The notes below the pieces were generated by a model, which worked only from the letters and a program-made list of their open reading frames with translations, did no database searches and was not told where the DNA came from. From a virus, in the IMG/VR virus record IMGVR_UViG_3300045988_140747: DNA of 64,000 nt, one strand, 5' to 3'. Every line of letters begins with the position of its first letter. Position 1 is the stretch's first letter. Shown piece by piece: positions 7,181-51,458 of this stretch. The position numbers were made by a program, and so were the translations under genes.

Positions 7181-7597
7181 ATGAAAGTCATTATCAATAC
7201 CCACGGAAACCCGCTTCCCGCGTCTTACGGCGAGTGGGTCGATCTTTACACCGCAGAAGATGCAACCCTCGAACCGCTGGAGTTTAAGATCATCTCTCTT
7301 GGCGTGTCCATGCAGTTGCCCAAAGGAAAGTATGCCGTCGTGGTCCCACGCTCTTCTGCCTGCAAGAACTATGGTGTCATCATGGCGAACAGCATTGGCA
7401 TCATTGAGAACAGCTATTGCGGCAACAATGACATCTGGGGATTTCCTGCTGTTGCCATCCGGCACACTGAGATTCCGAAGGGAACACGGCTGTGCCAGTT
7501 CCGGCTTGTTGACCAGTCCGAAGCGATCGTGTTTGAACCCGTTGATGACCTCGGGAACCCTGACCGTGGCGGGTTTGGAAGCACTGGCAGCAAGTAA
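7181..7597 (+). CDS. dut: dUTP diphosphatase (trimeric dUTPase)
   Basis: Motifs VVPRSS, GIIENSYCG and C-terminal RGGFGSTG. RBS AAGGAGG upstream. Confidence 0.9.
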   Translation: MKVIINTHGNPLPASYGEWVDLYTAEDATLEPLEFKIISLGVSMQLPKGKYAVVVPRSSACKNYGVIMANSIGIIENSYCGNNDIWGFPAVAIRHTEIPKGTRLCQFRLVDQSEAIVFEPVDDLGNPDRGGFGSTGSK

Positions 7598-16928: not shown

Positions 16929-17013
16929 GGGCGTGTAGCTCAGAAGGTAGAGCACGCGTGAGTCCAAAAGGTCTCCGCCAGAAGAAGTCGTCGGTTCGAT
17001 TCCGACCACGCCA
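16929..17013 (+). pseudogene. tRNA-like element / probable tRNA pseudogene
   Basis: Canonical acceptor (GGGCGTG/CACGCC), D arm (GCTC-AGAAGGTA-GAGC) and T arm (GTCGG-TTCGATT-CCGAC). The 36-nt middle has no 5-bp/7-nt anticodon arm in any register. No CCA. Confidence 0.4.
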
Positions 17014-17120
17014 AGACCGAAAGTATTGAAAGATCATGTGTGGTGCGCAACATACGCGGTCTGGAGACACATAGTAGGCAACAAGGCTCGTGTTAGGTAC
17101 AAGCACGGGTCAAATGCAAG

Positions 17121-17271: not shown

Positions 17272-17946
17272 ATGAAAGTTGAAAGACCCAGTTATCAAAT
17301 CCTTACTGAGATCTCAAAAGACGGCATCGAAGAGCTGCAGCGAATTGAACGCGTAGCACGAGTCTGCTATAAGAGCGAGGATAAGATCGTCCCGGATGGC
17401 TCATCGGCGAAGAAGCTGGTGAGCTTTCTTATTAAGCAGGAGCATGAGGCCATGCTGGAGCACTCCCAGCTGTCTGTGCTGTTCACCTGTGACAGGGCCA
17501 TTGCAAATGAACTGGTACGTCACCGCATTGCATCCTTCGCGCAGGAGAGCACCCGCTACTGCAACTATGCAGGGGAGAAATTCGGATGGGAGACTACGGT
17601 TATCAAACCGTACTACATTCCCGGCGATGGGTCTGACGCATATAAAGCTTGGTTCGATGCCTGCTGGGAAGCAGAGCAAAGCTATCTGAAGCTCATTCGG
17701 AGTGGTCTTCGTCCTGAACAAGCACGCTGCGTATTGCCGTTGTGCCTGAAGACAGAGATCGTGGTGACTGCCAACTACCGTGAGTGGCGTAACATTTTCA
17801 AATTGCGTACACATATCGCCGCTCACCCTCAGATGCGCCAGCTTATGTGCCCGCTTCTTCTCGAGCTGCAGAAGAAGATCCCGGTTGTGTTTGATGATAT
17901 CTACACCTACTGGCCGAATGATGACCAGACCGGTAAGAAAGCTTAA
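17272..17946 (+). CDS. thyX: FAD-dependent thymidylate synthase ThyX
   Basis: ATG 17272 after AAGGAAGG. ThyX signature RHRIASFAQESTRY, plus EHSQLSVLF and REWRNIFKLR. The 5' part of the track ORF (from 17026) runs across the tRNA and is not coding. Confidence 0.9.
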   Translation: MKVERPSYQILTEISKDGIEELQRIERVARVCYKSEDKIVPDGSSAKKLVSFLIKQEHEAMLEHSQLSVLFTCDRAIANELVRHRIASFAQESTRYCNYAGEKFGWETTVIKPYYIPGDGSDAYKAWFDACWEAEQSYLKLIRSGLRPEQARCVLPLCLKTEIVVTANYREWRNIFKLRTHIAAHPQMRQLMCPLLLELQKKIPVVFDDIYTYWPNDDQTGKKA

Positions 17947-17972
17947 CCCAAAGCCGTGGAAACACGGCACAT

Positions 17973-18062
17973 CGAGGATTCGCCAAGATGGTAATGCAGC
18001 GGAATTTGACTCCGCCAGTGCTGAATAAGCGATCGCAGGTTCGAGCCCTGCATCCTCGGCCA
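17973..18062 (+). tRNA. atypical class II tRNA, Ser-like scaffold with anticodon TTG (nominally Gln)
   Basis: Acceptor CGAGGAT/ATCCTCG, discriminator G, CCA. Anticodon arm GCGGA-ATTTGAC-TCCGC (perfect 5 bp). Long variable arm with TGCT/AGCG stem. T arm GCAGG-TTCGAGC-CCTGC. The D stem is weak. Confidence 0.55.
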
Positions 18063-18085
18063 TAAAAGCAATCTGGAGGTCGTTC

Positions 18086-18715
18086 ATGGAAAGCAAAGAA
18101 CAGCTGGTGATTTTCGGTGCCGGCCAGCAGGGGCGCGTATGTAAGCGCCTTGCCATTGAAAACGGTTATGATGTGGCAGCATTCATTGATGACTTTGCCG
18201 CAGGATTAGTAGAGGATGTCCCCGTTTATCAAACCATCTATGATATCCCGGACTTCCGAAAATACAAATATTTCGTTGCCATTGGGGATGTCAAGGCAAG
18301 ACGGAAGTTCGTTGACCAGATCTACTCTCAGAAACTTGAATCTGTCAATTTGATCGACAAAGCCGCCTATATCGAAGATGGAGCGCAGCTCGGTACAGGA
18401 AACTACATCTGCAAGCTTGCGATCATCTACGCATCTGCAAAGATCGGAAGCCACAACATTATCAACTGTAAGGCAGTTCTCGCCACGGATACGGTGGTAG
18501 GCACCAACAATAACATCTCAATGGGATGCAACCTATGCGGAAGCGTCCGTGTCGGGAACAACTGCTACATAGGATGTCAGGCGTCCATTGTGAGCGAACG
18601 AACTATTGGAAACGGCTCTACTGTCGCAGCTGGCGCTGTTGTCCTGAAGAATGTCCCTGAGAATTCTTTCGTTGCTGGTGTACCTGCCATTCCGAAGGAG
18701 AGGAAAAGACGATGA
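18086..18715 (+). CDS. NeuD/PglD-family hexapeptide-repeat sugar N/O-acyltransferase
   Basis: N-terminal Rossmann-like VIFGAGQQGR...AFIDD, then left-handed beta-helix hexapeptide repeats (IGSHNIIN, VGTNNNIS, VGNNCYIG, IGNGSTVAAGAVV). Confidence 0.8.
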   Translation: MESKEQLVIFGAGQQGRVCKRLAIENGYDVAAFIDDFAAGLVEDVPVYQTIYDIPDFRKYKYFVAIGDVKARRKFVDQIYSQKLESVNLIDKAAYIEDGAQLGTGNYICKLAIIYASAKIGSHNIINCKAVLATDTVVGTNNNISMGCNLCGSVRVGNNCYIGCQASIVSERTIGNGSTVAAGAVVLKNVPENSFVAGVPAIPKERKRR

Positions 18716-19374
18716 AAGTTCTTGTTATCGCACCTCACCCTGATGACGAGATTCTCGGTGTTGGCGGAACGATAGCAAAAAGGGCTGCTGTCGGCGATGA
18801 AGTTACCGTGTGCATCTGTACAAAGGGCGTACACCCTATGTTCGATCAAAAGATTATTAAAGCTGGACGTGATGAAGCCAGAAAGGCTCACACATACCTT
18901 GGTGTCTCAGAAACCATATTTCTGGATCTTCCTGCTGCAGAGCTTGATAGTCTGCCTATGACTGATATCGTGGGAAGGCTCGAGAATGTGGTTTGCGAAA
19001 CACGTCCAGATGAGATTTTCATTCCTCATCATGGTGACATCCACAATGACCATAAGGCTATCTCTGCTGCCGCGATGGTTGCTTTGAGGCCGAAACGGTT
19101 CAAGAAGCCTGTTCGCATTCTCAGCTATGAGGTTCCGTCTGAGACAGGATGGGATACTCCTACTCCAGAAAATGCATTTAGCCCGAATGTATATGAGGAT
19201 ATCACCGACACAATCGGAAAGAAGCTCGACGCTGTTCTTATATACAGATCGCAAGCTGAACAGTGGCCGGGCGCTCGTTCCGCGGGCGCTGTTGAAGCTC
19301 TTGCAAAATATCGGGGATCTACCGTCTGCATCCCTTACGCCGAGGCATTTCAGCTTGTAAGGCAGACACTGTGA
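18712..19374 (+). CDS. PIG-L/LmbE-family de-N-acetylase
   Basis: VLVIAPHPDDEILGVGGT...HHGDIHNDH are the zinc-binding motifs of GlcNAc-type deacetylases. ATGA overlap with the upstream gene. Confidence 0.8.
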   Translation: MKVLVIAPHPDDEILGVGGTIAKRAAVGDEVTVCICTKGVHPMFDQKIIKAGRDEARKAHTYLGVSETIFLDLPAAELDSLPMTDIVGRLENVVCETRPDEIFIPHHGDIHNDHKAISAAAMVALRPKRFKKPVRILSYEVPSETGWDTPTPENAFSPNVYEDITDTIGKKLDAVLIYRSQAEQWPGARSAGAVEALAKYRGSTVCIPYAEAFQLVRQTL

Positions 19375-19401
19375 CCAACATCTAAAGAAGAGGGTTCGTC
19401 A

Positions 19402-20055
19402 ATGGAAAAACGAATTGAAGTTTGCAAGATGAGAGCTGGAGATATCAAAACCGGCTTCGGGAATCCCAGAAAGATCAGCAACAAAAAAATGGATGAGCTC
19501 GAGCAGAGCATGAGCACCTTCGGAGATTTCGGGATTTTCCTCATCGACGAAAAGAACAACGTCATCGGCGGAAACCAGCGGTTGAAAGTTGTCAAGAAGC
19601 TTTATGGCGAAGATGCCATGATTGATTGCAAACGGCTCATCGGATATTCTCAATCCGAGCTCAAGGCGATCAACATCAAGGACAACACACACTCTGGTGA
19701 ATGGGACCTTGACTTGTTGGCTGACTGGACTTCTGAACTCGTCATGGACTTCAGCGTTGAGGCCGAGGAGAAGAAGCAGATCGAAGAGCGCGAGATCCCG
19801 GAGATGGAGCTTATCCACTACGAAAAGTACGATTATGTCATGATCGTATGCAACAACGAGCTGGATTACAACAATCTGGTGAGAGCACTTGGCATCGAAG
19901 GCAAGAAAGTTCGGATTTCCAAACGCAAGATCAACGCGCGTGCGGTCTGGTATCACAAGATGAAGGCGAAGGTCATTCCTTACGATGAACTTCCTGAAGA
20001 ACTTCTTGATGATTCTGACATCAAGGCAAGGGATGGCGGTGGCGAAGATGAGTAA
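19402..20055 (+). CDS. ParB/Srx-fold N-terminal domain protein
   Basis: GFGNPRKIS...SMSTFGDFGIFLIDEKNNVIGGNQRL...NIKDNTHSGEWDLDLLADW is the pattern of ParB-like nuclease/NTP-binding domains, often fused to phage DNA methylases. No methylase domain here. Confidence 0.65.
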   Translation: MEKRIEVCKMRAGDIKTGFGNPRKISNKKMDELEQSMSTFGDFGIFLIDEKNNVIGGNQRLKVVKKLYGEDAMIDCKRLIGYSQSELKAINIKDNTHSGEWDLDLLADWTSELVMDFSVEAEEKKQIEEREIPEMELIHYEKYDYVMIVCNNELDYNNLVRALGIEGKKVRISKRKINARAVWYHKMKAKVIPYDELPEELLDDSDIKARDGGGEDE

Positions 20056-20671
20056 CAATACTCTCGTTATCCTTGGTGCCGGCCAGCAGGGAAGAAACTG
20101 CCATAGACTGGCTCCCATCAACGGTTATCAAACGGTTGCCTTCGTCGATGATTTCATCACTGACCCAGTGGAAGACATCCGGGTGTATAGCAAGATCGAA
20201 GATATTCCGGATTTCATGGATCATAAGTACATCGTTGCTGTTGGGGATCTTGCGGTCAGAAAAAAGTTCATTGAGCAGATCAATCTGCTTGGCCTTGAGT
20301 GCGCAAACCTGATTGATCCCACCGCTGATATCGAACCCGGAGCCAAGATTGGAACTGGCAACTACATCTACAAGTTCGCCAGCGTGTATGCTTCGGCCAC
20401 AATCGGAGACCACAACATTATCAATTGCAAAGCTGTACTTGCTACCGACAGCGTTATTGGCAACAACTGCAATATCTGCATGGGAAGCAACATCTGTGGC
20501 GCGGTTCATGTAGGAGACAATAGCTATATTGGGTACAACGCAACGGTCGTCAGCGGGAACAACGTGGGGGCGAACGCCACAGTGGAGGCTGGATCTGTGG
20601 TTATGGAGGATGTGCCGGACTGGCTCCGCGTTTCTGGTATTCCGGCTCGAGACGCCGAAGAACTGTGGTAA
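20048..20671 (+). CDS. NeuD/PglD-family acyltransferase, second paralogue
   Basis: ATG 20048 overlaps the upstream stop. Alignable over its full length with 18086-18715 (VILGAGQQGR, IGDHNIINCKAVLATD, VGDNSYIG). Confidence 0.8.
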   Translation: MSNNTLVILGAGQQGRNCHRLAPINGYQTVAFVDDFITDPVEDIRVYSKIEDIPDFMDHKYIVAVGDLAVRKKFIEQINLLGLECANLIDPTADIEPGAKIGTGNYIYKFASVYASATIGDHNIINCKAVLATDSVIGNNCNICMGSNICGAVHVGDNSYIGYNATVVSGNNVGANATVEAGSVVMEDVPDWLRVSGIPARDAEELW

Positions 20672-20686
20672 ACGTAGAGGTGTAAT

Positions 20687-21403
20687 ATGGAAAAGCCAGA
20701 TATTTTCGGAATCTACATTCCGAGCTATAAGAGATCTGATACGATTACCACTCATAAGCTTCTCGAATACTACAAGGTTGTTATTCGCCAGAGCGAATAT
20801 GAAGACTACCTCAAGACCATCCCTGCAGAAAACATCATTGCCGTTCAGGACGATCTTATCGATAGCGTTCCGAAGGTGTGGAACTGGATCATCGACAATG
20901 CAGAGGAGGACTACTTCTGCATTATCGGTGATGATGTTCCAAGGTTCTACTACCGGCTTGAGAAGAGCGAGGCCATCACAGATCCTGAGATTATCACTTC
21001 TGAGATAGAGCGAATCGGCCAGCTTATGATCGATCTCAATATCGGATGGGGATGTGATGATGCCACCAACGTGCCTTGGGGATACGATGCTGAGTTCACG
21101 TTCAAGGGGACTACCGGCGGAATCAACTGGATTAACAGGAAGAAGCTCAAGGGAAGGTTCAATGCGGAAATCGGATACTGCTGCGATACCGATGTCGTTA
21201 TGCAGGAACTTCTGGTAAACCGGATTATTCTCAAACCCAAGTATTTGTGTCCCGGCGGTGGAGCTGACAAAAACAAAGGCGGCAACTCAAAGAAGAGCCG
21301 AGAGAGTATGATTGCCAGCTTCGAACTTATGAAAACGAAGTGGGGCAAGTATTTCGACTACGACCTGAAGACCAACAAGATCTATGTGAGGGTTCCGCGA
21401 TGA
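20687..21403 (+). CDS. putative GT-A-like glycosyltransferase
   Basis: N-terminal IYIPSYKRSD strand-loop and FCIIGDDV (DxD-like). Resembles phage DNA/TET-associated or GT2-like glycosyltransferases. Assignment by motif only. Confidence 0.4.
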   Translation: MEKPDIFGIYIPSYKRSDTITTHKLLEYYKVVIRQSEYEDYLKTIPAENIIAVQDDLIDSVPKVWNWIIDNAEEDYFCIIGDDVPRFYYRLEKSEAITDPEIITSEIERIGQLMIDLNIGWGCDDATNVPWGYDAEFTFKGTTGGINWINRKKLKGRFNAEIGYCCDTDVVMQELLVNRIILKPKYLCPGGGADKNKGGNSKKSRESMIASFELMKTKWGKYFDYDLKTNKIYVRVPR

Positions 21404-22083
21404 CCGATGTAAGAGTGTTCTCAGGCCATCAGCCAAACTTCCTTCCATACATGGGCGTGTTCTACAAGATGTACCGTTCCAACGTGTTTGTCTTGGATGA
21501 CGATGTGCAGTATTCTAGGGATGGACTTCACAACGCCAACTTTATCAAAGTGAATGGGTCTAAGCACAGGATTACCGTGCCGGTCAAATACAACTTTGGA
21601 GATCCGATCAACAAGGTTGAGATATGCAACGACATGGATTGGGCTGGCAAGATGCTCAAGACTATGAAGTGCGCTTATGCAAAGGCTCCGCATTTTGAAG
21701 AAGGATATGGGCTCTTGGAAAGGCATTTTCAAAACATGCCAACCCGCTTGTCGGACTTGAACATTGGCCTCATCCGCGAAATCGCAGATAGATTCGGGAT
21801 GACGTGCAAAATTGTCGTTGCCAGCGAATCTGTTCCTACGGATCTCAAGAAGAACGAAAGAAACCTCTACCAATGCATCACCCTCGGGGGAAGTGAGTAC
21901 CTGTCAGGAGAGGGAGGAAGGGTATACAACGACGAAGAGCTGTTTGCTGGGCACGGGATCGACGTGAAGTACTCCGATTATCATCCACTCCATTACAGGC
22001 AAGTCGGTAGGGAGTTCATCGAGAACTTATCCGTTATTGACTACATTTTTAATGTTGGATTTGCGATTCCTGAAGAATGGTGA
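21400..22083 (+). CDS. WbqC-family protein
   Basis: ATG 21400 (ATGA overlap). SGHQPNFLPYMGVFYKM...VLDDDVQYSRDG..HNANFI...ITVPV...LSVIDYIFNVG matches the WbqC-like O-antigen-cluster family pattern. Confidence 0.7.
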   Translation: MTDVRVFSGHQPNFLPYMGVFYKMYRSNVFVLDDDVQYSRDGLHNANFIKVNGSKHRITVPVKYNFGDPINKVEICNDMDWAGKMLKTMKCAYAKAPHFEEGYGLLERHFQNMPTRLSDLNIGLIREIADRFGMTCKIVVASESVPTDLKKNERNLYQCITLGGSEYLSGEGGRVYNDEELFAGHGIDVKYSDYHPLHYRQVGREFIENLSVIDYIFNVGFAIPEEW

Positions 22084-22112
22084 AATAATTCTCGGTGATA
22101 CGTCAAAAATAC

Positions 22113-22156
22113 TTTACAAATGGAATGGTTGTGTTACGATATAGTTATATAAAAAC
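22113..22156 (+). promoter_or_regulatory. promoter P2: TTTACA-16 nt-TGtTACGAT plus downstream atAGTTATATAAAAAc
   Basis: Second copy of the conserved promoter-like motif. About 20 nt upstream of the RBS of 22175. Confidence 0.55.
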
Positions 22157-22174
22157 CACATCAGGAGGTTAAAT

Positions 22175-23335
22175 ATGGCTTATCCGTACACAGAGAATGG
22201 CTACAACATGTTCGACATGCTCAGCCTGATTCAGAAATCCATCCGCCGTTCCGACTACAATCATGCAAGCTTCGCAGCAAAACAACTCAAGGGGCGATAC
22301 CGCAGTACAATGTGGAATCGCCTTTTTGTCACCGCATCGGAAGACTGTTTTGGCGTATTATCAAAAGAACTCGTCGAGCTGAGGAAATGTGATGAAGTGC
22401 ATCCCAGCGACCAGAACCTCAGTGATGCACTCGCTCTGATGTGCAGAGCAAAGAAAAGCCGGGATGCCTGCTACTTTGCCTGCAATTTCGTCCTTGCAAA
22501 CAGAAAGCCGCGCAACTTCGAGTTTTCGGAATCGGAGATGTACGGTTTTCATTTGCAGTTGAATAGAATCCATGATCGTATTGCCGGGAAGATCAATCCT
22601 GATGGATGCGATCAGCTCTCTATCGAAGAGAACGGATTCAAAGAAGCTGACATTGACTACTGCGATCTGTTCTGTGAACTCAGCGAGGGAGAAGCCGCAG
22701 TGGCATACAATGGCCTTGCTCTCCAGAAGGCTATGAAACACCGCGACATGGATATGATCGGCTATCACACCAACTTCTTCCGGGAAAATTGCCGAGAGAA
22801 GTTTTGGGAGACACTGCTCGATTACACCCTGACCAATGCGCTGGATCTCTATAGTGAGATTGACGCCCTGCGGATCTGCGATGAAGTTGTCAACAAGAGG
22901 AGAGCACCTCTCGATAAGGACAACATCTTCGTGGCGAAGGCGGTCATGCTGCTGTGCTACTACGAAGATGACCGGTTCGACTCCGTATTATCAAACAAGA
23001 TTGTCAAGTTCGATGAGCTTATCGACTGGTCGCAGTGGGACATTCCTTCCATTGAGCGGGCAAGGCTCGTGAATGGTGAAATCCCTGAGTGGGTATATGA
23101 CTGCCACACCCTGAAGGGAAAGAAAGCGGGGAAAACCGACTGGGATATGACCGTTAGTGAGCAGGCAGCTCTTACACCTCTCCAGCCGGCATACTTCGAT
23201 GAAGCAAGCTGGCTGTACACCTACGAGCAGGACGTGGAGATGGGAGTTCTCGATGAGGTGGGGATGAAGCCCATCCGGGAATTCGCAAAAACGCATCCAG
23301 TGAATCCCGTGGAGGTAATCCCCTATGAGGAGTGA
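22175..23335 (+). CDS. hypothetical protein with MgsA/RarA C-terminal-like helical domain
   Basis: N-terminal FDMLSLIQKSIRRSDYNHASFAAKQL...RLFVTASEDCFGV parallels the RarA C-domain motif (SA.HKS.RGSD.DAA.YW...RR...ASED.G). No AAA+ module. Confidence 0.45.
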   Translation: MAYPYTENGYNMFDMLSLIQKSIRRSDYNHASFAAKQLKGRYRSTMWNRLFVTASEDCFGVLSKELVELRKCDEVHPSDQNLSDALALMCRAKKSRDACYFACNFVLANRKPRNFEFSESEMYGFHLQLNRIHDRIAGKINPDGCDQLSIEENGFKEADIDYCDLFCELSEGEAAVAYNGLALQKAMKHRDMDMIGYHTNFFRENCREKFWETLLDYTLTNALDLYSEIDALRICDEVVNKRRAPLDKDNIFVAKAVMLLCYYEDDRFDSVLSNKIVKFDELIDWSQWDIPSIERARLVNGEIPEWVYDCHTLKGKKAGKTDWDMTVSEQAALTPLQPAYFDEASWLYTYEQDVEMGVLDEVGMKPIREFAKTHPVNPVEVIPYEE

Positions 23336-23576
23336 GCCTGAAAGAAAGTCCGATAAGGTCCGGAGGTTGGTGGCAGAGGGAAGATACAAGGAAGCCCTGA
23401 GAATTGCCAAGGATTTCCATTTTGGCATATCCAAGGAAGACTCCGACACCATGAAGCGGGGATATGAATGTATGGTATGGCCGGACTTTTACAGGCAGAT
23501 AGGGAAGATGCCCTCTGAAATCTCACAAAAAGCCATAGAAACCGTGCAACGGCTGTATGGAATAAAATCAATCTAA
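23325..23576 (+). CDS. hypothetical protein
   Basis: 83 aa. GGAGG about 9 nt upstream. Overlaps the upstream gene's end. Confidence 0.5.
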   Translation: MRSEPERKSDKVRRLVAEGRYKEALRIAKDFHFGISKEDSDTMKRGYECMVWPDFYRQIGKMPSEISQKAIETVQRLYGIKSI

Positions 23577-23598
23577 GAAGATAAAAAACGCTCATAAA

Positions 23599-23635
23599 CA
23601 GCCTCTACGATCAATGCGTAGGGGCTGTAATTTTT
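23599..23635 (+). terminator. rho-independent terminator
   Basis: CAGCCTCTACG-atcaatg-CGTAGGGGCTG (11 bp, one T-G) followed by TAATTTTT. Confidence 0.7.
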
Positions 23636-24288: not shown

Positions 24289-25691
24289 ATGCCACAGATC
24301 CTGAAGCCGCAGGAAGGACCTCAGACACGGTTCATGTCTACCCCCGCGAGCATTTGTATCTATGGCGGCTAGGAGCAGCCGGCGGAGGGAAAAGCTTTGG
24401 ATTGCTCATGTCTGCCCTTCGGTACAAGAACGTGCCCGGGTTTGGCTGCACCATATTCCGAAAGAACTTCAACCAGATATTTGCACAGGGCGGTCTGTGG
24501 GATGAATCCATGCAGATCTACCAAGACGTCAAGGGAGCTTGTCCCAAGTTCGCTCGAGGGCAATGGTTGTTCTGCAATGACAAAGGTGAGGTTTTATCAA
24601 AGGTCACGTTTGCTCATATTGAGAAGGATGAGGACGTCCATAAATGGCAAGGCTCTCAGATCTGCGAATTGGGATTTGACGAGCTAACTCATTTTACCGA
24701 GAAAACGTTCTTCTATATGCTATCCCGTAACCGATCTGCCTGTGGTGTTGAGCCATTTGTCAGGGCTACATGCAACCCTGATGCGAATTCATGGGTGGCA
24801 AAGTTCATTGAGTGGTGGATCGATCAGGATACTGGATACCCAATCCCTGAACGGAGTGGGAAGATTCGATGGTTTATCCGCCGGGATGAAGTGCTCTACT
24901 GGGCTAATACCCGGCAAGAGCTCTGGAAAAGATTCAATCTCACTACAGAAGAGGAGAAAAGTGAGCCAAGGTCTGTCACGTTCATAATGTCTAAGTTGAG
25001 CGACAACAAGGAACTTATGAAGGTGAACCCGGGCTACCTTGCAAACCTAAAGGCGCTGTCTCAGATCGAGAGAGAGCGCCTTCTTTATGGAAACTGGAAG
25101 ATCAAGGCCGCTGCTGGTCTCTACTTCAAGAGATCACAGCTTGGAGAGATTCTCAATAGTGTCCCTGCGGATGTCATCCAGTGGGTAAGATGCTGGGACT
25201 TGGCTGCTACGGAAAAGGACGACAAGGGAGACCCGGCATATACTGCTGGCGTCCTTATGGGAAAGCGGAAGAATGGACGATATGTCATTGCCAACGTTGT
25301 CAACAAGCAGATGTCCGCATCTGATGTCCGAAAGACCATCAAGCTCACGGCACAGTCTGATAGAGCTGCCTATAAGCGAGTCCGAGTTCGATTGCCACAG
25401 GATCCCGGACAGGCCGGTAAGGAACAGGCGGAGTCCTACATAAAGTTCTTGGCCGGCTTTGATGTTACGACTGTGGCAGAAAGCGGAACCAAAGAGGCAA
25501 GAGCGGAGCCAATGGCTGCACAATGGCAGGCTGGAAACTTCGACATTGTATACGGCGAGTGGAATGAAGAGTACCTGCTTCAGCTTGAAAACTTCCCAGA
25601 TGGAAAGTTCAAGGATATGGTCGATGCTTCCGCAAATGCTTTTGCAGAGATCGAATCCAGATGCGCATTCAACCTCAGCAACCTGATTTGA
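24289..25691 (+). CDS. terL: terminase large subunit, reading frame interrupted near codon 27
   Basis: ATG 24289 (RBS GGAAGGGG) encodes MPQILKPQEGPQTRFMSTPASICIYGG, then TAG 24370. The -1 frame continues LGAAGGGKSFGLL (Walker A), FDELTHF and ATCNPD. The long frame has no ATG or RBS of its own. Confidence 0.75.
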
Positions 25692-25717
25692 TTACCATAC
25701 CGGAAGGAGATATAAGC

Positions 25718-27110
25718 GTGGATAAGATGACACAAGAGGATCGCATCAAGCACTATGCGCATCTGATTCAGCGTCAGACTGGCAAGGCTGTGCGACCGTA
25801 CCGTGCTGACGGATACGTCAACATGGTTAACCGGTATGGCACATCGAAAGATTCGTCCGAGCAGTACAACTTCGTACCGGATGCGCCGGTTGCTGACGAT
25901 GTGCTTGAAATGCACTATGAAAACAACGGCCTGTTTTCCAAAATCATCGATATGCCGGCAGAGGAAGCCATCAAGCACGGCTTTACCATCGAAGACGTAG
26001 AGGACGGAAAGCTGGCTGACTTCTACAGCGAAGCTCTCGACGAACTCAACTGGGAAGAGAACGCCATGACCGCCGTTAAGTGGGCAAGACTGTTCGGCGG
26101 CTCCATTGCCATTATGCTTGTGAACGATGGTCGTGGGCTCGAGGAACCTCTCGATTGGAAGAACATTCAATCCATTGACGATATCCGAGTGTACGACAGA
26201 TCGCTCATTAGCCCTGACTACAGTAGCGTGTTCAACTACGATCCGCAGGATCCATTCCGAGTTCGCGGCAGTCGGCTTGGTATGCCCGAATACTATGATG
26301 TCTATAGCAAGTATGGATCATTCCGAGTACACGACAGCAGATGCCTTGTTTTCCAAAACGGCGTCCTGCCTGAAAATGCAACTAACTCCATCTACCAGTT
26401 TTGGGGAATCCCGGAGTACATCAGGCTGAACAAGGCCATCCGGGATGCGGACATTGCACACCGCAGCGCACCCAAGTTGCTGGAACGGTCTGTGCAGCCC
26501 ATCTATAAGATGAAGGATCTCGCGGCTGAGTTGGCTACAGAACAGGGCGAAGACCGCATTCTCAAACGTCTGCAGGTTATCGACACTGCACGAGGAATCC
26601 TCAACAGCCTTGTCATCGATGCCGATGGCGAAGACTATGACTTCAAGACGTTCCAGTACAACGGTATCACTGACGTTATCAGTGCATCCTGCAATATGCT
26701 CGCTGCCCTGTCCAATATTCCACAGATCATTCTGTTTGGGCAGACCATCAGCGGAATGAGCAGCACTGATGACACCAGCATGGAGAACTACTACAACTAC
26801 GTTGAGCGCATTCAGAAAAGGATGCTGCGGAGTAATCTCCGATATCTACTGTCTGTTGTTTTTCAAGCCGGCCTTGCAACCGGAGAGGTTGATGAAGTCC
26901 CAAAGCTGAAGGTTCAGTTCAATCCTCTGTGGTCTGTCAGCGATTCCGACCAAGCAACTCTGGATCAGCAGAAGGCCCAGACCGAGCAGATCAAGGCGCA
27001 GACTGCCCAGATCTATGTCGGTATGGAAGCCATTGATCCCAGCGAGGTTCGTTCCAAGCTTGCAGATAGCGATGACTTTGATGTCGAGAATATGCTTGAT
27101 GAGTATACTG
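25718..27110 (+). other. portal domain (DUF1073-like)
   Basis: RADGYVNMVNRYGTSKDSSEQYNF...LEMHYENNGLFSKIIDMPAEEAIKHGF and the following ~400 aa fit the DUF1073 portal pattern. Position is directly after TerL. Confidence 0.75.
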
Positions 27111-30100
27111 AAGAGGAACTCGAAGCTGGAATGCCAAGCAATGATGAGAGCCAAGAGCAAACGCCTGATGATGGACAGCCTGCTACTCCTGATTCTCAAC
27201 CTACTGGAAATGATGAAAAAGCCGGACCTGGTCAGCTCCTGAACGAAAAGACTCTCTCTGCTGTTGGAAACAATGCAAAAGATCCTGCCACCATGGAGAC
27301 TAAGGTTAGCTCCGATCCTCATGAAAACAAGGAAGGCACTGAAGGTGATGCCCCTGCATCCGCCCCTGCTGCGACGAAAAAGCCTTCCGACATGGACCCT
27401 GAAGAAAAGGCCAAAGCTGCACAATCGCGCCAAAACAAGGCAAAAGACCGGGAGGACTCACTTCGTACCGATGACAACAATTCTCACTCCGAAGATCAAA
27501 AAGGCTCGGTGGGCGTTATTGTGGTCAATGGGGGCAGAGTCCTGAATGGTACTCGGCACAACGATTTTGGCTACGGCCTTGTCTGTGGCCCCGGCGGTCA
27601 CATTGAAGAAGGTGAAACTCCGGAACAGGCTGCATTCCGAGAGACCAAAGAAGAATTCGGTATTACGCCCAAAAGCCTTATGTGCCTTGGACAAGGGCCT
27701 AAAGAAAAAGATACCGGCCTGAAGCCGTACCTGTTCCTGTGCACCGAATACTACGGCACTCCGAACTGCGAAGATCTCGAGATGACCGGCGCCAAGTTCA
27801 GTACCATTGAGGAATTGAACGAAAAGGCCGAATCCTTGTTCGGCCCGTTCGCAGACGGCCTGAACATCCTGATGGACTGCCTTGAAACCGGCATCTTCTA
27901 TACAGACCCAGCGGAAGGCGTAACTGGCGAGAAACTGAATTCTCATCTGGAAAAGGCTATGAATGCCGATGGAGGTCAAGGATCTGGCAATTTTGGACAC
28001 GAAGGAAGGCCAGGAAAAGTAGGAGGAAGCGCCGAGTCGCACAACTTTGGAGGGCTCAAAAACAGCGAGCTTTCATCTAAGATGAATGGCGTGTTCGATG
28101 ATGCAAAGATAGGAACTCGCTTTTCCGTAAAGATGAACGGCGTTGCCGGAAAAGATGATTATGAAATCTATAAAGTTTCAGATGGATTCTACGTTCGGAG
28201 CAAAAAAGGCGGAAACGATATTGTCAAATCAGTTGACAAGCTCGTCGAGAATTGCGGTGTATACGTCACAAATCTGACCTCTGACAAGGTCATGTATAAG
28301 GAAGCCAACATTGAAGTTGGTGAACCCGAAACAGAAGAAGCACAAAGTTTTACTAGAGCATACGAATCTTGCAGAAAGGAAAGAGAGCGACTTGCATCTG
28401 GGAATTATAAAATCACTGAAGTTGATGATGCTACCGCAAAAAAGTATGCTGACACTTTGAACAAAGCAAGCAAGGCAAAAATCGCAAAACTTGCTATTGA
28501 TGACCCACAGTTCAAGGCTGTTGTTGATAACATTTCTGCGTATACACAGGGAGAATATGTATATCAGCGAAAAGCGACTGAAAAATTCATCAGCAACGGA
28601 TATGACCCATCTAACGATGCAATCCTCGGAGATCGACTTACCGATTCTTTGTATTTATGCAAAGACATGTACAAGGGACAAAATCTTTCCGTTTCCAGTG
28701 CAAGTGTAACGGAAGGCATGGCGAACTTGACAAAGGCTGTGAATTGCTCCGATCCGTTTGACGGAGAGCTGTACCGAGTTGCTCAGGACAGAAGCCTGAT
28801 GAAAACTGCAGACTCTGGAAACCAGGGAGTATACACTCCGCCAAAACCCGGAGAAACAATATCCATAGTTGCTCCTACTTCGTTCTCAAAGGACAAAGCG
28901 GCTATTGATAAGATTGCCAAAGATAAGTCCGGTGATATCATCTATTACACTGTTCAACCGGGTGCTCATGCCGTAGATGTATCAAAGCTGTCACCGTATA
29001 AGCAAGCTGAACTCCTTACCTGCGGAGAATATGAGGTTGTCAGTGTTGATTCCAAGCCTCAGAGAGTTGTTATGACTCAGATCGATCGTTTCACAAGTGA
29101 AACAATCGATTCGCTGAAGGCCAACAGAGGGGCAACAGTTGACGACGGTTTTGTTAAATTTCCAATCCTTGAAACTCATGTGACTCTTCGCCAGAAAGAA
29201 CCTATTCACATGGATTCTTGCGATGATAGCATCCACAGATACAGACCCGACGATTTTTCCGAACGGATGGTCTATGATGACGAGATTGATCTCGATGGTG
29301 GCCCAGGGTCTGGGAACTATGGGCACGAGGGCGTTCCGGGGCAAGTGGGCGGAAGCGCCCCTAGCACAAGCGGTCCGATTTCCAAAAGTAGCTTTCAGAA
29401 GGGCTCTGGTCACTTTGAAGTAACTGGTGACGTGAAAGATATGTATCTCACAAAGCCGGCAAGAACCAGAATTGAAGGGGCTATTAAAACGGTGAAAACC
29501 GCTAATGACCTCAAGAAATATCTTGAAAATCAAGGAATCAAGCTTGAAACGTCTTATGAACCACTCAAGAAAGCGATGGATAGAGAGATCCCGTCCATCA
29601 AGGAGCAGGCTGATTATGTGATTGCCGCTATTGAGCAGTACAAGGATCTCGGTGGGCTTAAAGCGCTTAAAGCGGTTCACATCTATGACCATGATATTGA
29701 TGCACAGGCGCAGTACAGCTATCGCGCAAAAGGGGAAGGTGATGTTCCAGACGAGGGACATTTGTATATCAGCTACATGGCTAATGGAGAGCAAATTATG
29801 CATGAGTTTGCTCACGCCTATGCTGACTCCACAAAGCCTGATGGAATGGATGTTGTCGAATGGTCAGCGAAGCTCAACCAAGAAGCAGGCCTTTCGAAAA
29901 ACGTAAAATCATACTTCGGCGCGGACAGCGATGCTAAAGAAGCTGAGCGTTTTGCCAATGCGATTGGGTACGCAATTGCGGATGGAGATGGACCGGATGG
30001 CCGACTTGCATTTGCTGCAAATGTTGCGAATATCGTAAGAAATTCCAATGGATCGTCCGCAGGAATGTCCGGCGGAAACCTTGCATTTAGAAGCATGATT

Positions 30101-32238: not shown

Positions 32239-33057
32239 GTGGCAGGATTGAAGAACACCAATCGAATCATCGGAGGAATCGTTGGCGATATCGTCGGATC
32301 TGTATATGAGTTCGACAATATCAAGTCCAAGGACTTCGTTCTGTTTGGGGATCATCACGGTCAGAAATGCTTCGCAACCGATGACAGCATAATGACTCTG
32401 GCGGTTTGCGATGCGTTCACCAAGAGTGCTCCGTACTACGAATTCCTTTACGAAAACCTCATGAAGTCCATGCAGGAAATCGGAAGACCGTATCCGGATT
32501 GCGGATACGGAGGAAGATTTTATAGCTGGATGTACTCTGATAACCCACAGCCGTATAACAGCTTTGGGAATGGCGCTGCGATGCGCGTAAGTGCTGCAGC
32601 ATACGCTGCGAATACGCTCTCTGAAGCTCTCGACTTCGCAAGAATCACTGCAGAAGTCACCCATAATCACCCTGAAGGCATCAAGGGCGCACAGGCTACT
32701 GCTGGATGCATTTACCTTGCGCTTCATGGATATGACTTCCGAAAGATCCTGCGATTTGCCGATCACTACTATGACCTAGACTTCACCCTTCACGGTATCC
32801 GTGACAGCTATCGGTTCAATGAGTCCTGCCAGGAAACAGTTCCACAGGCTATTGTCGCTTTCCTTGAATCCACTGATTTTGAGGATTCAATCCGCAACGC
32901 GATTTCCATTGGCGGGGACAGCGACACACTGGCCTGTATTACTGGATCTATTGCCGGAGCCTACTATGGTGTTCCCGTAAACATCGCAGATAAGGCCATC
33001 GGATATTTGGATCCTCGCCTCCGTGAAATCTACGATCGGTTTGTTGAAGAGTTCTGA
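32239..33057 (+). CDS. ADP-ribosylglycohydrolase (ARH/DraG family)
   Basis: GDIVGSVYEF, ATDDSIMT, NSFGNGAAMR, THNHPEGIKGA and IGGDSDTLACITGSIAGAYYG are the ARH metal-binding motifs. GTG start. Confidence 0.85.
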   Translation: MAGLKNTNRIIGGIVGDIVGSVYEFDNIKSKDFVLFGDHHGQKCFATDDSIMTLAVCDAFTKSAPYYEFLYENLMKSMQEIGRPYPDCGYGGRFYSWMYSDNPQPYNSFGNGAAMRVSAAAYAANTLSEALDFARITAEVTHNHPEGIKGAQATAGCIYLALHGYDFRKILRFADHYYDLDFTLHGIRDSYRFNESCQETVPQAIVAFLESTDFEDSIRNAISIGGDSDTLACITGSIAGAYYGVPVNIADKAIGYLDPRLREIYDRFVEEF

Positions 33058-50423: not shown

Positions 50424-51458
50424 GTGGCCGAAACACGATCCGGATTAGTTGTGGATGACTATTCAAAAGTTGCCTTTTCTGTAGATGGCACCAAACAGGA
50501 GCTATCTATTGACGAATGGAAGGCCGGCTGGGCTACCATTGTTGGCGGCATTAACGGAAAGCCGACAAGCCAGCAGTTCAACATGGTTACATACATTCTG
50601 TCAAGCTTGCTGAATCAAGCCATTTCAGATCTTTCAACTGTTAAAAGCACCGCCAATGACGCACTGCCAAAGACCGAATTCACAGCGGATCAAATTGCAA
50701 AGATGCTTGCAGAACTGGATCTGATGAATGGATGCAACGCCGATAAGCTTGACGGAAAACATGGCGATGAATATGCGTCTGCAGACCATAAGCATTCTGC
50801 AGACGACATTGAAGTCGGAACATTGCCCATCGAACGAGGTGGAACATATGCCACTACCGCTCCTGAGGCGTGTGCAAATCTTGGCGCAATGCAGACAGCC
50901 GGCGGTACGTTCATTGGTGATGTTTACTTTGCAAACGGAACTGCGCATTATGTTTTGTCAACAGGCGACGCGCATCTTAAATCTTTGACGGTATCTGGTG
51001 ATATCAATGCAAAGCGAGTCTACGATGCAGTTTATAACGACTATGCTGAGTTGATGCCGCGTGGCGAACAAACAGAACCGGGCGACATCGTTGCTCTCGA
51101 TACCAGCAGTCAGACGGAACGATACATCAAGGCAACGAATTTGTCTGACCGTATCGCTGGAGTCCACACTGATGAGTTTGCAATGCTTATCGGCGGCAAT
51201 AAAGTTAGAGAAGGGCAGGATTTCCTTGCGGAAAACCTGCCCTCTTTTATTCCTGTTTCTCTTGCTGGCCGTGTGCATACCAAAGTGATCGGGCCTGTTC
51301 ATACGGGTGACTACATTGTTTTGTCTGAAACGCCAGGAATCGGACGTGCCGTTGGTTCGTGTGAATCCTGCCCGACCGATAAAATTGTTGGCTACGCTTG
51401 TGAAGGCGATGACCGAACAGATCTTAGACTGGTAAAAGTCAGAGTAGGGGGCAAGTGA
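50424..51458 (+). CDS. tail fibre protein 1
   Basis: GTG after AAAGGAGG. W..GW..IVGGINGKPTSQQFN, DKLDGKHGDEYA..HKHSADDIEVGTLPIERGG: classic fibre motifs. Confidence 0.7.
   Translation: MAETRSGLVVDDYSKVAFSVDGTKQELSIDEWKAGWATIVGGINGKPTSQQFNMVTYILSSLLNQAISDLSTVKSTANDALPKTEFTADQIAKMLAELDLMNGCNADKLDGKHGDEYASADHKHSADDIEVGTLPIERGGTYATTAPEACANLGAMQTAGGTFIGDVYFANGTAHYVLSTGDAHLKSLTVSGDINAKRVYDAVYNDYAELMPRGEQTEPGDIVALDTSSQTERYIKATNLSDRIAGVHTDEFAMLIGGNKVREGQDFLAENLPSFIPVSLAGRVHTKVIGPVHTGDYIVLSETPGIGRAVGSCESCPTDKIVGYACEGDDRTDLRLVKVRVGGK

Follow-up and report, generated by a model that had tools for sequence, protein, structure and literature searches.

A phage operon that joins a ParB-fold protein and a TAGT-family glycosyltransferase to variable, putative amino-sugar tailoring enzymes

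Results

Organization of the locus

The window analysed here is a 64,000-nt stretch of DNA from a phage of gut bacteria, the IMG/VR virus record IMGVR_UViG_3300045988_140747. The original prediction had described an operon of six genes, A to F, downstream of thyX and a tRNA gene, in a region that also holds dut (Table 1). Profile matches bear out each of the six ORFs and its family, and the overlaps between A and B (18712-18715), C and D (20048-20055) and E and F (21400-21403) are as described. The co-directional, tightly packed unit, however, runs on past F through two further genes, G and H, to a terminator-like hairpin, right after which come the terminase genes. Because overlapping or closely spaced co-directional genes are followed by this hairpin, we read A-H (18086-23576) as one operon of eight genes rather than six, located between the replication and packaging genes of the window. 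Its GC content is the same as that of the rest of the phage, and all of its proteins are soluble, with membrane segments absent (maximum Kyte-Doolittle mean over 19 residues at most 1.17). The tRNA, which has a long variable arm and lies between thyX and A, is present as named, as are dut and thyX (119.6 bits against the TIGR02170 cutoff of 87.9), but neither thyX nor dut is part of the module: thyX occurs beside it at only 2 of the 47 non-redundant loci described below.

Table 1. Positions of the module genes and neighbouring features in the window
Feature	Position	Strand	Supporting match or property
dut	7181-7597		
thyX, FAD-dependent thymidylate synthase	17272..17946	+	PF02511 6.7e-45; TIGR02170 equivalog
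tRNA-Gln(UUG), 90 nt	17973..18062	+	ARAGORN call; Rfam tRNA 40.2 bits
A, NeuD/PglD-type acyltransferase	18086..18715	+	
B, PIG-L/LmbE de-N-acetylase	18712..19374	+	
C, ParB-fold protein	19402..20055	+	
D, second NeuD/PglD-type acyltransferase	20048..20671	+	
E, TAGT-family glycosyltransferase	20687..21403	+	
F, WbqC-family protein	21400..22083	+	
G, 386-aa helical protein	22175..23335	+	
H, 83-aa basic protein, last gene	23325..23576	+	phrog_18237
Terminator-like hairpin	23598..23628	+	12-bp stem, 7 G-C pairs, T-run

An invariant core surrounded by variable tailoring genes

C, G and E each served as a separate query to collect related loci, which come from IMG/VR, metagenomes and GTDB genomes. 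Wherever flanking DNA exists, all three genes are present, amounting to 78 phage or prophage loci, 47 of them non-redundant, and every G locus with upstream DNA also has E and C. H, which matches phrog_18237 at 2e-24, lies directly 3' of G in 35 of the 47. The survey of co-occurrence across phages that had been suggested with the original prediction thus yields C, E and G as the invariant core, whereas the deacetylase and the acyltransferases vary among loci.

A PIG-L gene is found in 37 of the 47 loci and a PglD-type gene in 16, making A a variable accessory. Of the 47 loci, 45 encode either WbqC (38 loci) or an ATP-grasp (PylC-like) ligase (seven), and none encodes both; the partner of WbqC is always an amine-generating enzyme, PIG-L in 36 loci and DegT in two. 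Other variants bring in a Polysacc_synt_2 4,6-dehydratase, DegT, a GFO/IDH/MocA oxidoreductase, UDP-galactopyranose mutase or UDP-glucose dehydrogenase, and some have UDP-glucose dehydrogenase only, or a dehydratase with an aminotransferase. In cultured, lytic Microbacterium cluster EC phages, a related set comprises a ParB-like protein (gp88), a glycosyltransferase (gp89), UDP-glucose dehydrogenase (gp90) and a G homologue (gp91); it follows a sigma factor gene near the right genome end, with the terminase genes at the left end. We found no description of the module gene set in the literature searched, in line with what had been supposed.

This distribution bears on an alternative that had been raised from the start, namely host-surface chemistry. 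E could decorate a wall polymer precursor (teichoic-acid-like) at the cytoplasmic face and so alter receptors, resulting in superinfection exclusion or in fewer progeny being adsorbed to debris. TarP, a prophage enzyme, modifies wall polymers in this way in S. aureus, and since TarP-type enzymes are soluble, the missing transmembrane segments are compatible with such a role; PglD, DegT, the 4,6-dehydratase and WbqC are classical surface-polysaccharide families, and many carriers of the module are prophages of gut Clostridia. In the PDB, moreover, TarP is the closest structural relative of phage GT-A DNA glycosyltransferases (bioRxiv 10.1101/2023.12.21.572611). However, the module is also carried by Microbacterium phages that are strictly lytic (PMC7302621), it has the GC content of the phage and lies beside packaging genes, not where a lysogeny gene or moron would sit, and every homologue that we found of E, F or G belongs to a phage context and none to a polysaccharide locus. 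As a wall-polymer pathway would also leave the ParB-like protein without a role, we consider surface chemistry disfavoured and its probability low.

The transfer core

C alone has no Pfam match. It does match phrog_620 'ParB-like' (5.7e-21) and the N-terminal part of phrog_498 'DNA methyltransferase' (5.2e-20), and the profile of its family aligns with the N-terminal domain of Spo0J/ParB (6sdk, E 6e-4), including the NPR and G-x-x-R motifs. C consists of a ParB-CTPase-fold N-domain (approximately residues 1-125) and a small C-terminal domain that is conserved, and it lacks an HTH; the GERR motif of ParB is G-N-Q-R in C, replacing the hydrolysis Glu. Identity among loci ranges from 55 to 89%, and the Microbacterium homologue gp88 matches Pfam ParB_N (3.3e-8) and C itself across both domains (BLASTP 2e-16). 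The ParB-fold protein that had been noticed in the operon is therefore genuine, and it is always linked with E and G. ParB-like proteins were shown in 2026 to activate phage T-dioxygenases on dsDNA, for which they are required (PMC13229309), and in phages the ParB fold usually occurs as a fusion with a DNA methyltransferase (PMC12704722), as in phrog_498. By architecture, C resembles the former in being a stand-alone ParB-fold NBD with a small CTD and no HTH, strictly co-encoded with a polymer-modifying enzyme in a hypermodification-type phage cluster, although its GERR motif is altered and its partner is a glycosyltransferase rather than an Fe/2OG dioxygenase. We propose that C is an activator or targeting factor for E.

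The match of E to TAGT (PF20691; 1.6e-5, 25.4 bits) falls slightly below the gathering score of 27.5, but all 46 aligned relatives match the family (best 1.8e-12), and the homologue at locus L092 exceeds the gathering score (33.5 bits, model positions 3-186 of 205). E also matches phrog_842 'beta-glucosyl-HMC-alpha-glucosyltransferase' (1.2e-11) and contains a [DG]-D-D motif in which D82 is invariant and D83 nearly so. Judged by sequence, E is a TAGT-family, GT-A-like glycosyltransferase, in agreement with the original prediction. It thus shares a sequence family with the T2/T6 enzyme, but forms its own subfamily and never stands beside TET/JBP.

G has no Pfam or NCBIfam match. Its structure model (pLDDT 92) is all-helical, with an MgsA/RarA-C-like N-terminal domain and an invariant C-terminal motif, DCHT..G...GKTD.DMT. 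Foldseek matches in the PDB cover only residues ~1-110, with E-values all above 0.3 despite listed probabilities near 1.0, and those in BFVD (E 1e-6 to 1e-3) are giant-virus proteins, two of them labelled 'putative glycosyltransferase'. Neither the model nor the matches reveal a recognisable catalytic or DNA-binding fold, and we propose that G assists E as an adaptor or by binding the acceptor.

The tailoring enzymes

A belongs to the NeuD/PglB/VioB family TIGR03570 (1e-53, 182 bits, cutoff 160.8) and combines PglD_N (PF17836), a nucleotide-sugar-binding domain, with Hexapep (PF00132), as in sugar N-acyltransferases of the left-handed beta-helix type. D matches the same family (9.9e-50) and is a paralogue of A (57% identical; BLASTP 2e-82). 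B matches PIG-L (PF02585, 1.4e-25) and contains the motifs PHPDDE and HHGDIHNDH; the best named NCBIfam models, BshB1 (78.6 bits, cutoff 182.5) and BshB2 (59.6 bits, cutoff 195.25), score well below their cutoffs. B is thus a predicted zinc de-N-acetylase that would free a sugar amine.

F matches WbqC (PF08889, 5.2e-58). Its AlphaFold2 model (pLDDT 95.5) retrieves BshC first from the PDB (4wbd, E 6.7e-4, probability 1.0), with class I aaRS and a cytidylyltransferase ranking next; the likeness to BshC is one of fold only (TM 0.44 normalised to the query), with no sequence match. This BshC/class I aaRS-like nucleotide-binding fold, the mutual exclusion with the ATP-grasp ligase and the constant presence of an amine-generating enzyme together suggest that F is an amide (amino-acid) ligase that uses ATP and has the sugar amine as its substrate. 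Instead of the plain replacement of an N-acyl group that had been envisaged, the chemistry would then be to deacetylate, ligate an amino acid and cap, similar to mycothiol and bacillithiol synthesis.

Given this similarity, it seemed conceivable that the operon makes a soluble aminoacyl-glucosamine glycoside, either a bacillithiol- or mycothiol-like thiol or an aminoglycoside-like compound, for redox control or host interference. A glycosyltransferase, a PIG-L deacetylase, a BshC-like, class I aaRS-like ligase and an acetyltransferase match the step order of BshA/B/C and MshA/B/C/D, of which the mycothiol pathway includes N-acetylation, and all enzymes are soluble. However, it is C, E and G that are invariant, not the deacetylase or the ligase: WbqC is missing from nine of the 47 loci and PIG-L from ten, and variants with a dehydrogenase only, or with a dehydratase and an aminotransferase, are unfit for a single conserved metabolite. 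E is of the TAGT type and not a GT4 enzyme like MshA and BshA, the acetyltransferases are left-handed beta-helix PglD-type proteins and not GNATs, and such extreme tailoring diversity would be more expected of a polymer epitope under recognition than of a cofactor. We therefore regard a small-molecule product as very improbable and a polymer as the probable acceptor.

Discussion

Our interpretation, which we hold tentatively and at somewhat less than even confidence, is that A-H form a soluble, cytoplasmic glycosylation module of two layers, which places a tailored amino sugar on a macromolecule, most likely phage DNA. We infer the substrates, the order of steps and the roles of C, G and H as follows. 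The first, variable layer would start from a common nucleotide sugar, in the simplest case UDP-GlcNAc, and yield an unusual donor: B would strip the N-acetyl group, F would use ATP to couple the exposed amine to an amino acid or some other carboxylate, and A and D would cap free amines with acetyl. That PglD_N is kept in A and D, and that other variants contain UDP-sugar enzymes, suggests that tailoring probably takes place on the nucleotide sugar, ahead of transfer. In the second, invariant layer, E would attach the sugar with the help of C and G, C acting in the manner of the ParB-like activators that enable phage thymine dioxygenases on double-stranded DNA, and G as a partner of E; the acceptor would most likely be replicated phage DNA, prior to packaging.

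DNA is favoured as the acceptor by the TAGT membership of E, the precedent of ParB-like activators, the late-operon position, the solubility of the proteins, the GC content and the occurrence in strictly lytic phages. Among the members of TAGT are the T6-type enzyme, presumed to place a second glucose on glucosyl-hmC (PMC13390438), and TET-associated DNA glycosyltransferases (PMC13390438; Pfam name). The DNA hypermodification put forward originally is supported to this extent, but no source of a hydroxymethyl-pyrimidine was found: TET/JBP, a ThyA-like hydroxymethylase and a hydroxylase are absent from the scanned window ORFs (all but ~10 small early ones of at most 130 aa), TET/JBP and hydroxymethylases from the 10 kb upstream in relatives, and a hydroxymethyl-pyrimidine source from the annotation of Microbacterium phage Gina, whose complete genome spans 53 kb. 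Modification of DNA, if that is the acceptor, would then be distinct from the base-J/TET chemistry that had been proposed for comparison. We know of no precedent for direct glycosylation of a canonical base.

A 5hmC, 5hmU or 5-hydroxy-C acceptor could also be supplied by a divergent enzyme elsewhere in the phage or host. Thousands of 5mYOX-like contigs are missed by the Pfam TET/JBP model (PMC13229309), relatives L001, L002 and L023 have a long C5-cytosine methyltransferase upstream, and L003 has a dCMP deaminase. Against this, the 10 kb upstream of the module contain no further conserved family in a set of 26 representative loci, a C5-methyltransferase lies within range in only one of the 47, the unassigned window ORFs are at most 265 aa and, like the small unscanned ones, not conserved with the module, Gina has no annotated candidate, and G is modelled as all-helical and not as a jelly-roll dioxygenase. 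We judge this route improbable.

TAGT membership leaves the acceptor undefined, since GREB1 has a TAGT-type domain that adds O-GlcNAc to a protein (PMC7968844), and E might likewise O-glycosylate virion or other proteins, with C and G providing specificity or scaffolding and epitope pressure driving the sugar diversity. Consistent with this, the module lies immediately upstream of packaging and structural genes, no enzyme generating a DNA acceptor was found, and hypervariable glycans are typical of exposed surfaces. Mycobacteriophages do glycosylate capsid and tail proteins of their virions, but by other glycosyltransferase families, a point against this reading. The module adjoins the terminase side of the late region rather than capsid or tail genes, and its strict link to a ParB-CTPase fold that is otherwise tied to phage DNA-modifying enzymes (PMC13229309, PMC12704722) also speaks against a protein acceptor, which we consider unlikely, if worth keeping in mind.

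Sugar hypermodification of phage DNA is known from the T-even glucosyltransferases and from clusters of 5mYOX/TET or ThyS with GT-A/GT-B enzymes (PMC8256090; bioRxiv 10.1101/2023.12.21.572611; PMC13326640). The module shares with these pathways a TAGT/GT-A phage glycosyltransferase, nucleotide-sugar enzymes (mutase, epimerase-type), soluble proteins and ParB-like neighbours. It differs in having no enzyme that forms a hydroxymethyl- or hydroxy-pyrimidine, in the invariant G, in having temperate phages of Clostridia among its carriers and in the predicted amino sugar, which would be processed by a deacetylase, a ligase and acyltransferases, none of them reported there; in a survey of phage GT-A and GT-B enzymes, contigs without a 5mYOX or ThyS neighbour were deemed less likely to encode DNA pathways (bioRxiv 10.1101/2023.12.21.572611). 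A conceptual precedent for base modification before packaging is Mom of the temperate phage Mu, although it involves neither a sugar nor a ParB or G partner. Mom has an acyltransferase fold and adds a carbamoylmethyl group to adenine, a late, post-replicative modification of a canonical base that needs no pre-replicative precursor. The tailoring families, in turn, recur in pathways for O-antigens and flagellin glycans that employ WbqC-like, PglD/VioB and DegT enzymes, such as the one for N-acetylglycyl-Qui4N in E. coli O121 or the one with Cj1324 in C. jejuni, where they act on nucleotide-linked amino sugars and where N-(acyl-aminoacyl) amino sugars are known products. Unlike these, the module is phage-borne, has no flippase, polymerase or lipid-carrier glycosyltransferase, and is tied to a ParB-like protein, TAGT and G.

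The existence of cultured related phages makes the question of the acceptor testable. Should it prove to be DNA, the modification would shield virion DNA from host nucleases, and the diversity of the tailoring genes would stem from an arms race against modification-dependent defences.

Extent and layout of the module

The window derives from a siphovirus-type phage of gut Firmicutes, in which the module lies between the early genes (RecT, a DnaC-like loader, RusA, an HNH nuclease, SSB, dUTPase and several tRNAs) and the packaging genes. All six ORFs of the original prediction (A-F) are present, with boundaries and overlaps as described there, and they do form a single unit; this unit is, however, larger than the six-gene operon proposed, as the genes for a helical protein (G) and a small protein (H) also belong to it. 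The GC content of the module is the same as that of the remainder of the phage, and a promoter scan returned promoter-like sites no more often than in shuffled sequence. None of the proteins A-I contains a TM-like segment. Among deposited phages, nucleotide matches to the region were limited to thyX and a tRNA, with the thyX relative belonging to Faecalibacterium phage FP_oengus.

Coordinates of features in the window and in related loci
Feature	Sequence	Position	Strand	Remarks
tRNA	window	16929-17014	+	86 nt; Rfam 41.3 bits; absent from ARAGORN output
thyX	window	17272-17946		after early genes, before module
tRNA-Gln(UUG)	window	17973-18062	+	90 nt; ARAGORN assignment; Rfam tRNA 40.2 bits
G	window	22175-23335		386 aa; 3' of F
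H	window	23325-23576		83 aa; overlaps G
Strong terminator-like hairpin	window	23598-23628		after H; ahead of an uncharacterised 203-aa ORF and the large terminase gene
Large terminase	window	24354-25691		followed by portal fusion protein
Portal fusion	window	25661-31897	+	2078 aa; portal, NUDIX and C-terminal ADP-ribosyltransferase exoenzyme domain
ADP-ribosylglycohydrolase	window	32239-33057	+	next sizeable gene after portal; 5.7e-38
Cys-rich repeat protein	window	51455-52444	+	tail region; 329 aa; repeats CSGSCDGCSSSC...
Radical SAM enzyme	window	53306-54700	+	beside Cys-rich repeat protein; 464 aa; CNLRCSYC; Radical_SAM and Fer4_12
C5-cytosine DNA methyltransferase	L001/L002	2444-4906		upstream; unusually long (613-638 aa, with L023)
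C5-cytosine DNA methyltransferase	L023	6003-7844		upstream; unusually long (613-638 aa, with L001/L002)
C-PglD fusion	L011	472-1713		408 aa; IMG/VR relative, C 99% identical
Distant C homologue	L026	9974-11011		47% identity over the ParB-like domain

An invariant core with variable tailoring genes

Genomic contexts were fetched via E, via C and via G, that is, the glycosyltransferase, the ParB-like protein and the helical protein of the module. In this co-occurrence survey, proposed together with the original prediction, the three genes were linked in all 78 loci for which flanking DNA was available (47 non-redundant at 95% identity of E), and every one of these lies in a phage or prophage, where the module closely precedes terminase genes. 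The deacetylase and acyltransferases, from which the chemistry was originally deduced, are present in the window, but across the 47 loci the tailoring genes vary while C, E and G stay constant.

Tailoring genes accompanying the core in the non-redundant loci
Tailoring genes	Loci	Additional genes
PglD + PIG-L + WbqC (window type)	16	
PIG-L + WbqC	13	
PIG-L + WbqC + DegT aminotransferase + Polysacc_synt_2 4,6-dehydratase	7	methyltransferase in one
ATP-grasp ligase + PLP-dependent Orn/DAP-type decarboxylase	6	UDP-galactopyranose mutase in three
WbqC + DegT + GFO/IDH/MocA oxidoreductase	2	
PIG-L + ATP-grasp + DegT + dehydratase	1	
DegT + dehydratase only	1	
UDP-glucose dehydrogenase only	1	

All-against-all ORF clustering of 26 representative loci revealed no further gene family conserved within 10 kb upstream. 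A C5-cytosine methyltransferase is adjacent in 1/47 loci and thyX in 2/47; the latter rarity, together with a score above the thyX equivalog cutoff, led us to reject thyX as a hidden hydroxymethylase. Some related loci carry long C5-cytosine methyltransferases (see the table of coordinates), followed in L001 and L002 by a Lar-like restriction-alleviation gene and replaced in L003 by a dCMP deaminase.

Genome records give gut Clostridia as hosts (Lachnospiraceae, Oscillospiraceae, Acutalibacteraceae, Lawsonibacter, Faecalibacterium, Ruminococcus, Roseburia and Coprococcus), in addition to one MAG each of Treponema and Bacteroidales and to the isolate Coprococcus intestinihominis CLA-AA-H190. 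At an E-value of at most 0.001, metagenomic clusters at 90% identity yielded 217 homologues of E, 224 of G and 175 of F, the WbqC-family protein. A tblastn search of 50,697 deposited phage genomes (INPHARED) with E found no match. G, in contrast to E, matched 56 Microbacterium phage records, mostly of cluster EC, and it was through G alone that this link was found. In Microbacterium phage Gina, a sigma factor gene is followed by those for the ParB-like gp88, the glycosyltransferase gp89, the UDP-glucose dehydrogenase gp90 and the 'AAA-ATPase' gp91, with the set near the right genome end and the terminase genes at the left end. BLASTP aligns gp88 with both domains of C (2e-16), while hhalign aligns gp89 over its full length with the E profile (89%, E-value 2e-6) and pairs gp91 with the N-terminal domain of G (99.7%). 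The same layout of ParB-like, TAGT, UGDH-like and short G genes recurs in a Coprococcus prophage. In the Microbacterium phage genome paper, the genes are listed without function and the phages are described as lytic (PMC7302621). The complete Gina annotations contain no hydroxymethylase, dioxygenase or DNA polymerase, and our literature search found no restriction-digest data for a cluster EC phage.

Proteins of the core

The ORF at 20687, E, had been read as a GT-A-like glycosyltransferase, and its relatives support this at the level of family assignment. While the window copy itself scores slightly below the gathering threshold of TAGT PF20691 (25.4 against 27.5 bits), all 46 aligned relatives match this family at E-values below 0.01 (best 1.8e-12), and the L092 homologue, at 33.5 bits, covers positions 3-186 of the 205 in the model. 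PHROGs groups E with the T-even beta-glucosyl-HMC-alpha-glucosyltransferase family. The family has a GT-A-type DxD metal/nucleotide-sugar motif, with D82 invariant and D83 nearly so, in a region that reads I-D-D-D in the consensus and I-G-D-D in the window. A PDB sequence search with the E profile gave nothing useful. Neither a TET/JBP-type dioxygenase (5mYOX) nor a hydroxymethylase was found beside E in the scanned window ORFs, within 10 kb upstream in the 26 representative loci, or in the Gina annotations.

For C, the predicted ParB fold was upheld: the family profile matches the CTP-binding N-domain of B. subtilis Spo0J (6sdk; E-value 6e-4), aligning NPR with QPR of Box I and G-N-Q-R with G-E-R-R of Box II, so that C has an N-terminal ParB domain with the Box I and Box II arginines. 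N21, P22, R23, G57 and R60 are invariant in the family. C further matches the ParB-like phrog_620 (5.7e-21) and the N-terminal part of the phage DNA methyltransferase PHROG phrog_498. The window copy alone has no Pfam match; its homologue gp88 matches ParB_N at 3.3e-8. Residues ~125-200 form a conserved second domain that matched no HTH family, and charge and pI of both C and G were uninformative on DNA binding. Unusual forms of these genes also occur. In L011, a short deletion that takes out the G-x-G motif at the N-terminus of D has fused C to this second PglD paralogue, and protein P0060 (407 aa) joins a PglD-like part to E; such fusions could hint, as Rosetta stones, at physical coupling or else be artefacts of decay or assembly. 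The distant C homologue in L026, a locus without E or G, carries a C-terminal extension of ~230 aa with SAM-methyltransferase-like motifs by eye (ELYAGRG, DFDDEG) and without a Pfam match.

G has no match in Pfam, NCBIfam or a functionally named PHROG family. Its structure is confidently predicted (pLDDT 92) as all-helical, with the first ~110 residues resembling the C-terminal domain of MgsA/RarA-type ATPases, all Foldseek E-values against the PDB being above 0.3; beyond this N-domain, no PDB fold was matched. As the model lacks a beta-sheet, we rejected the GKKAGKT stretch as a P-loop. Among predicted viral structures, G matches giant-virus proteins (E-values 1e-6 to 1e-3), two of which, from Heterosigma akashiwo virus, are named 'putative glycosyltransferase', which hints that the predicted fold may travel with glycosyltransferases elsewhere. 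An HMMER profile search of 1.84 billion representatives at 50% identity returned at least 1172 relatives, and the best 150 of these are all at most 425 aa long and free of fusions. Many family members are short forms of ~180-230 aa, apparently reduced to the MgsA-C-like N-domain plus the region of the C-terminal motif. Actinobacteria phage genomes annotate G relatives as 'AAA-ATPase' despite the lack of an ATPase domain.

Putative sugar-tailoring enzymes

The family assignments originally made for A, B, D and F all hold above cutoff. A and D, paralogues with 57% identity, score 182 and 168.9 bits against TIGR03570 (NeuD/PglB/VioB; cutoff 160.8), and both contain PF17836 (PglD_N) and PF00132 (hexapeptide beta-helix). 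B matches PIG-L PF02585 with 90.7 bits (gathering score 28.2), has intact metal motifs (PHPDDE and HHGDIHNDH), and finds its best named NCBIfam matches in BshB1 and BshB2. F matches WbqC PF08889 with 196.9 bits (gathering score 21.3; 5e-58). The confident AlphaFold2 model of F (pLDDT 95.5) has BshC, the cysteine-adding enzyme of bacillithiol synthesis, as its best PDB match in Foldseek (4wbd; E-value 6.7e-4, prob 1.0, TM 0.44), followed by class I aaRS (TyrRS, LysRS-I) and a cytidylyltransferase; this points to a HUP nucleotide-binding, class I aaRS-like fold. Searches of the PDB by sequence, with single sequence and profile, gave no match, such that the likeness to BshC is one of fold and context.

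The genomic distribution of the ligases agrees with this. WbqC is present in 38 loci and the ATP-grasp ligase in 7, in no case together, and 45/47 loci have one or the other; WbqC is always accompanied by an enzyme that generates the free amine of a sugar, namely PIG-L (36 loci) or DegT (two). Based on its predicted fold, this mutual exclusion and the constant amine-making partner, F may be an ATP-dependent amide ligase acting on a sugar amine. Bacillithiol synthesis employs a deacetylase and then a ligase, to which mycothiol synthesis adds N-acetylation; B, F and the capping enzymes A and D would reproduce this step logic, while in loci with PIG-L and WbqC only, a free amine would remain. The thiol pathways, however, use a GT4 glycosyltransferase (BshA/MshA), whereas E is TAGT-like, and mycothiol MshD is a GNAT acetyltransferase, whereas A and D are left-handed beta-helix enzymes. 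That the module, like these pathways, yields a small molecule as its product has only a slim probability.

Other features of the phage

Several genes outside the module deserve mention. By eye, the tRNA-Gln(UUG) combines a variable arm of ~20 nt, as in class II tRNAs, with a G discriminator in front of CCA; a Ser-like body here carries a Gln anticodon, so that mis- or re-coding is a possible function. In relatives, separate genes encode the portal-NUDIX part and the ADP-ribosyltransferase that are fused in the window, and the fusion together with the ADP-ribosylglycohydrolase suggests an ejected ADP-ribosylation effector with its antidote. The radical SAM enzyme, which lies in the tail region beside the Cys-rich repeat protein, could serve as a maturase and introduce cross-links into a structural protein; we rejected it as an acceptor-forming enzyme and consider it unrelated to the module.

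Discussion

In the mechanism that we propose, the variable enzymes would build a non-standard nucleotide sugar, in the window via UDP-GlcN and an N-aminoacyl intermediate from UDP-GlcNAc to an N-(acyl-aminoacyl) product, and the invariant core of C, E and G would transfer this sugar to a macromolecule. Tailoring after transfer is a possible alternative order; we favour tailoring of the nucleotide sugar because A and D keep PglD_N, which in PglD binds the UDP moiety, and because variant loci use 4,6-dehydratase, DegT, Glf and UGDH, enzymes that act on nucleotide sugars only.

DNA is the best candidate for the acceptor, for several reasons. TAGT enzymes include DNA-sugar transferases (PMC13390438). 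ParB folds in phages typically occur as fusions with DNA methyltransferases (PMC12704722), and in hypermodification clusters phage ParB-like proteins are required activators of thymine dioxygenases on dsDNA (PMC13229309); C may share the architecture of these activators. The module moreover lies between replication and packaging genes and is present in lytic phages, and variable tailoring on a fixed core is what would be expected of an arms race with modification-dependent nucleases. Pfam searches of most window ORFs (all but about ten small early ones of at most 130 aa) found no enzyme that would form an acceptor hydroxyl, be it TET/JBP, ThyA-like or a DNA methyltransferase. E would thus need to act on a canonical base or another position of DNA, a glycosylation for which we know of no precedent, or else the acceptor is not DNA. 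We rate the former, our proposed route without any hydroxymethyl or hydroxy pyrimidine, at slightly less than an even chance; a DNA acceptor formed through a hidden hydroxymethyl or hydroxy pyrimidine is improbable.

In a survey of phage glycosyltransferases, contigs lacking a 5mYOX or ThyS neighbour are considered weaker candidates for DNA pathways, and phage GT-A enzymes are likened to TarP, which acts on wall teichoic acid (bioRxiv 10.1101/2023.12.21.572611). A wall polymer is an improbable acceptor. Surface-polysaccharide (O-antigen/WTA) clusters comprise a flippase, a polymerase, a lipid-carrier glycosyltransferase and membrane components and reside in cellular glycan loci, whereas the module is without these: A-I include no membrane component, and each of the 78 loci lies in a phage or prophage, beside terminase genes. 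A tie of the homologues to surface-polysaccharide genes, named at the outset as speaking against DNA, was seen in none of them. Transfer to a protein, as carried out by the TAGT-type domain of GREB1 (PMC7968844), is unlikely too, if less so.

The earlier interpretation as DNA hypermodification is thereby supported in part, and revised regarding the extent of the unit, its core, its chemistry and the absence of a TET-type route. In its full form, our model has a ParB-activated TAGT glycosyltransferase, together with G, glycosylating canonical (non-hydroxymethylated) bases post-replication with aminoacyl- or acyl-amino sugars from a bacillithiol/mycothiol-like pathway diversified by an arms race with modification-dependent defences, which would amount to a new class of DNA hypermodification, widespread in prophages of human-gut Clostridia and in Actinobacteria phages; all of this together is tentative and on balance doubtful. 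The chance that the module represents a categorically new DNA modification is well below even, yet substantial. Neither the gene set nor the C-E-G triad nor G is described in the literature searched, and we class the module among phage glycosylation/hypermodification clusters, as a new variant.

Should the acceptor prove to be DNA, the module would provide the first case both of a sugar hypermodification independent of hydroxymethyl or hydroxy pyrimidines and of a DNA modification with an amino-acid-decorated amino sugar, and it would extend the activator role of ParB-like proteins from dioxygenases to glycosyltransferases. Whatever the acceptor, the uncharacterised WbqC family gains a proposed amide-ligase activity on sugar amines, and G constitutes a new protein family without a Pfam match. 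As cultured carriers exist, in the form of the Microbacterium phages and the Coprococcus isolate, the question of the acceptor is directly testable. The module is common, and its carriers include prophages of Lachnospiraceae, Oscillospiraceae, Faecalibacterium, Roseburia and Coprococcus, major Clostridia of the human gut; consequences for restriction barriers, sequencing biases and phage-host dynamics in this environment are therefore conceivable.
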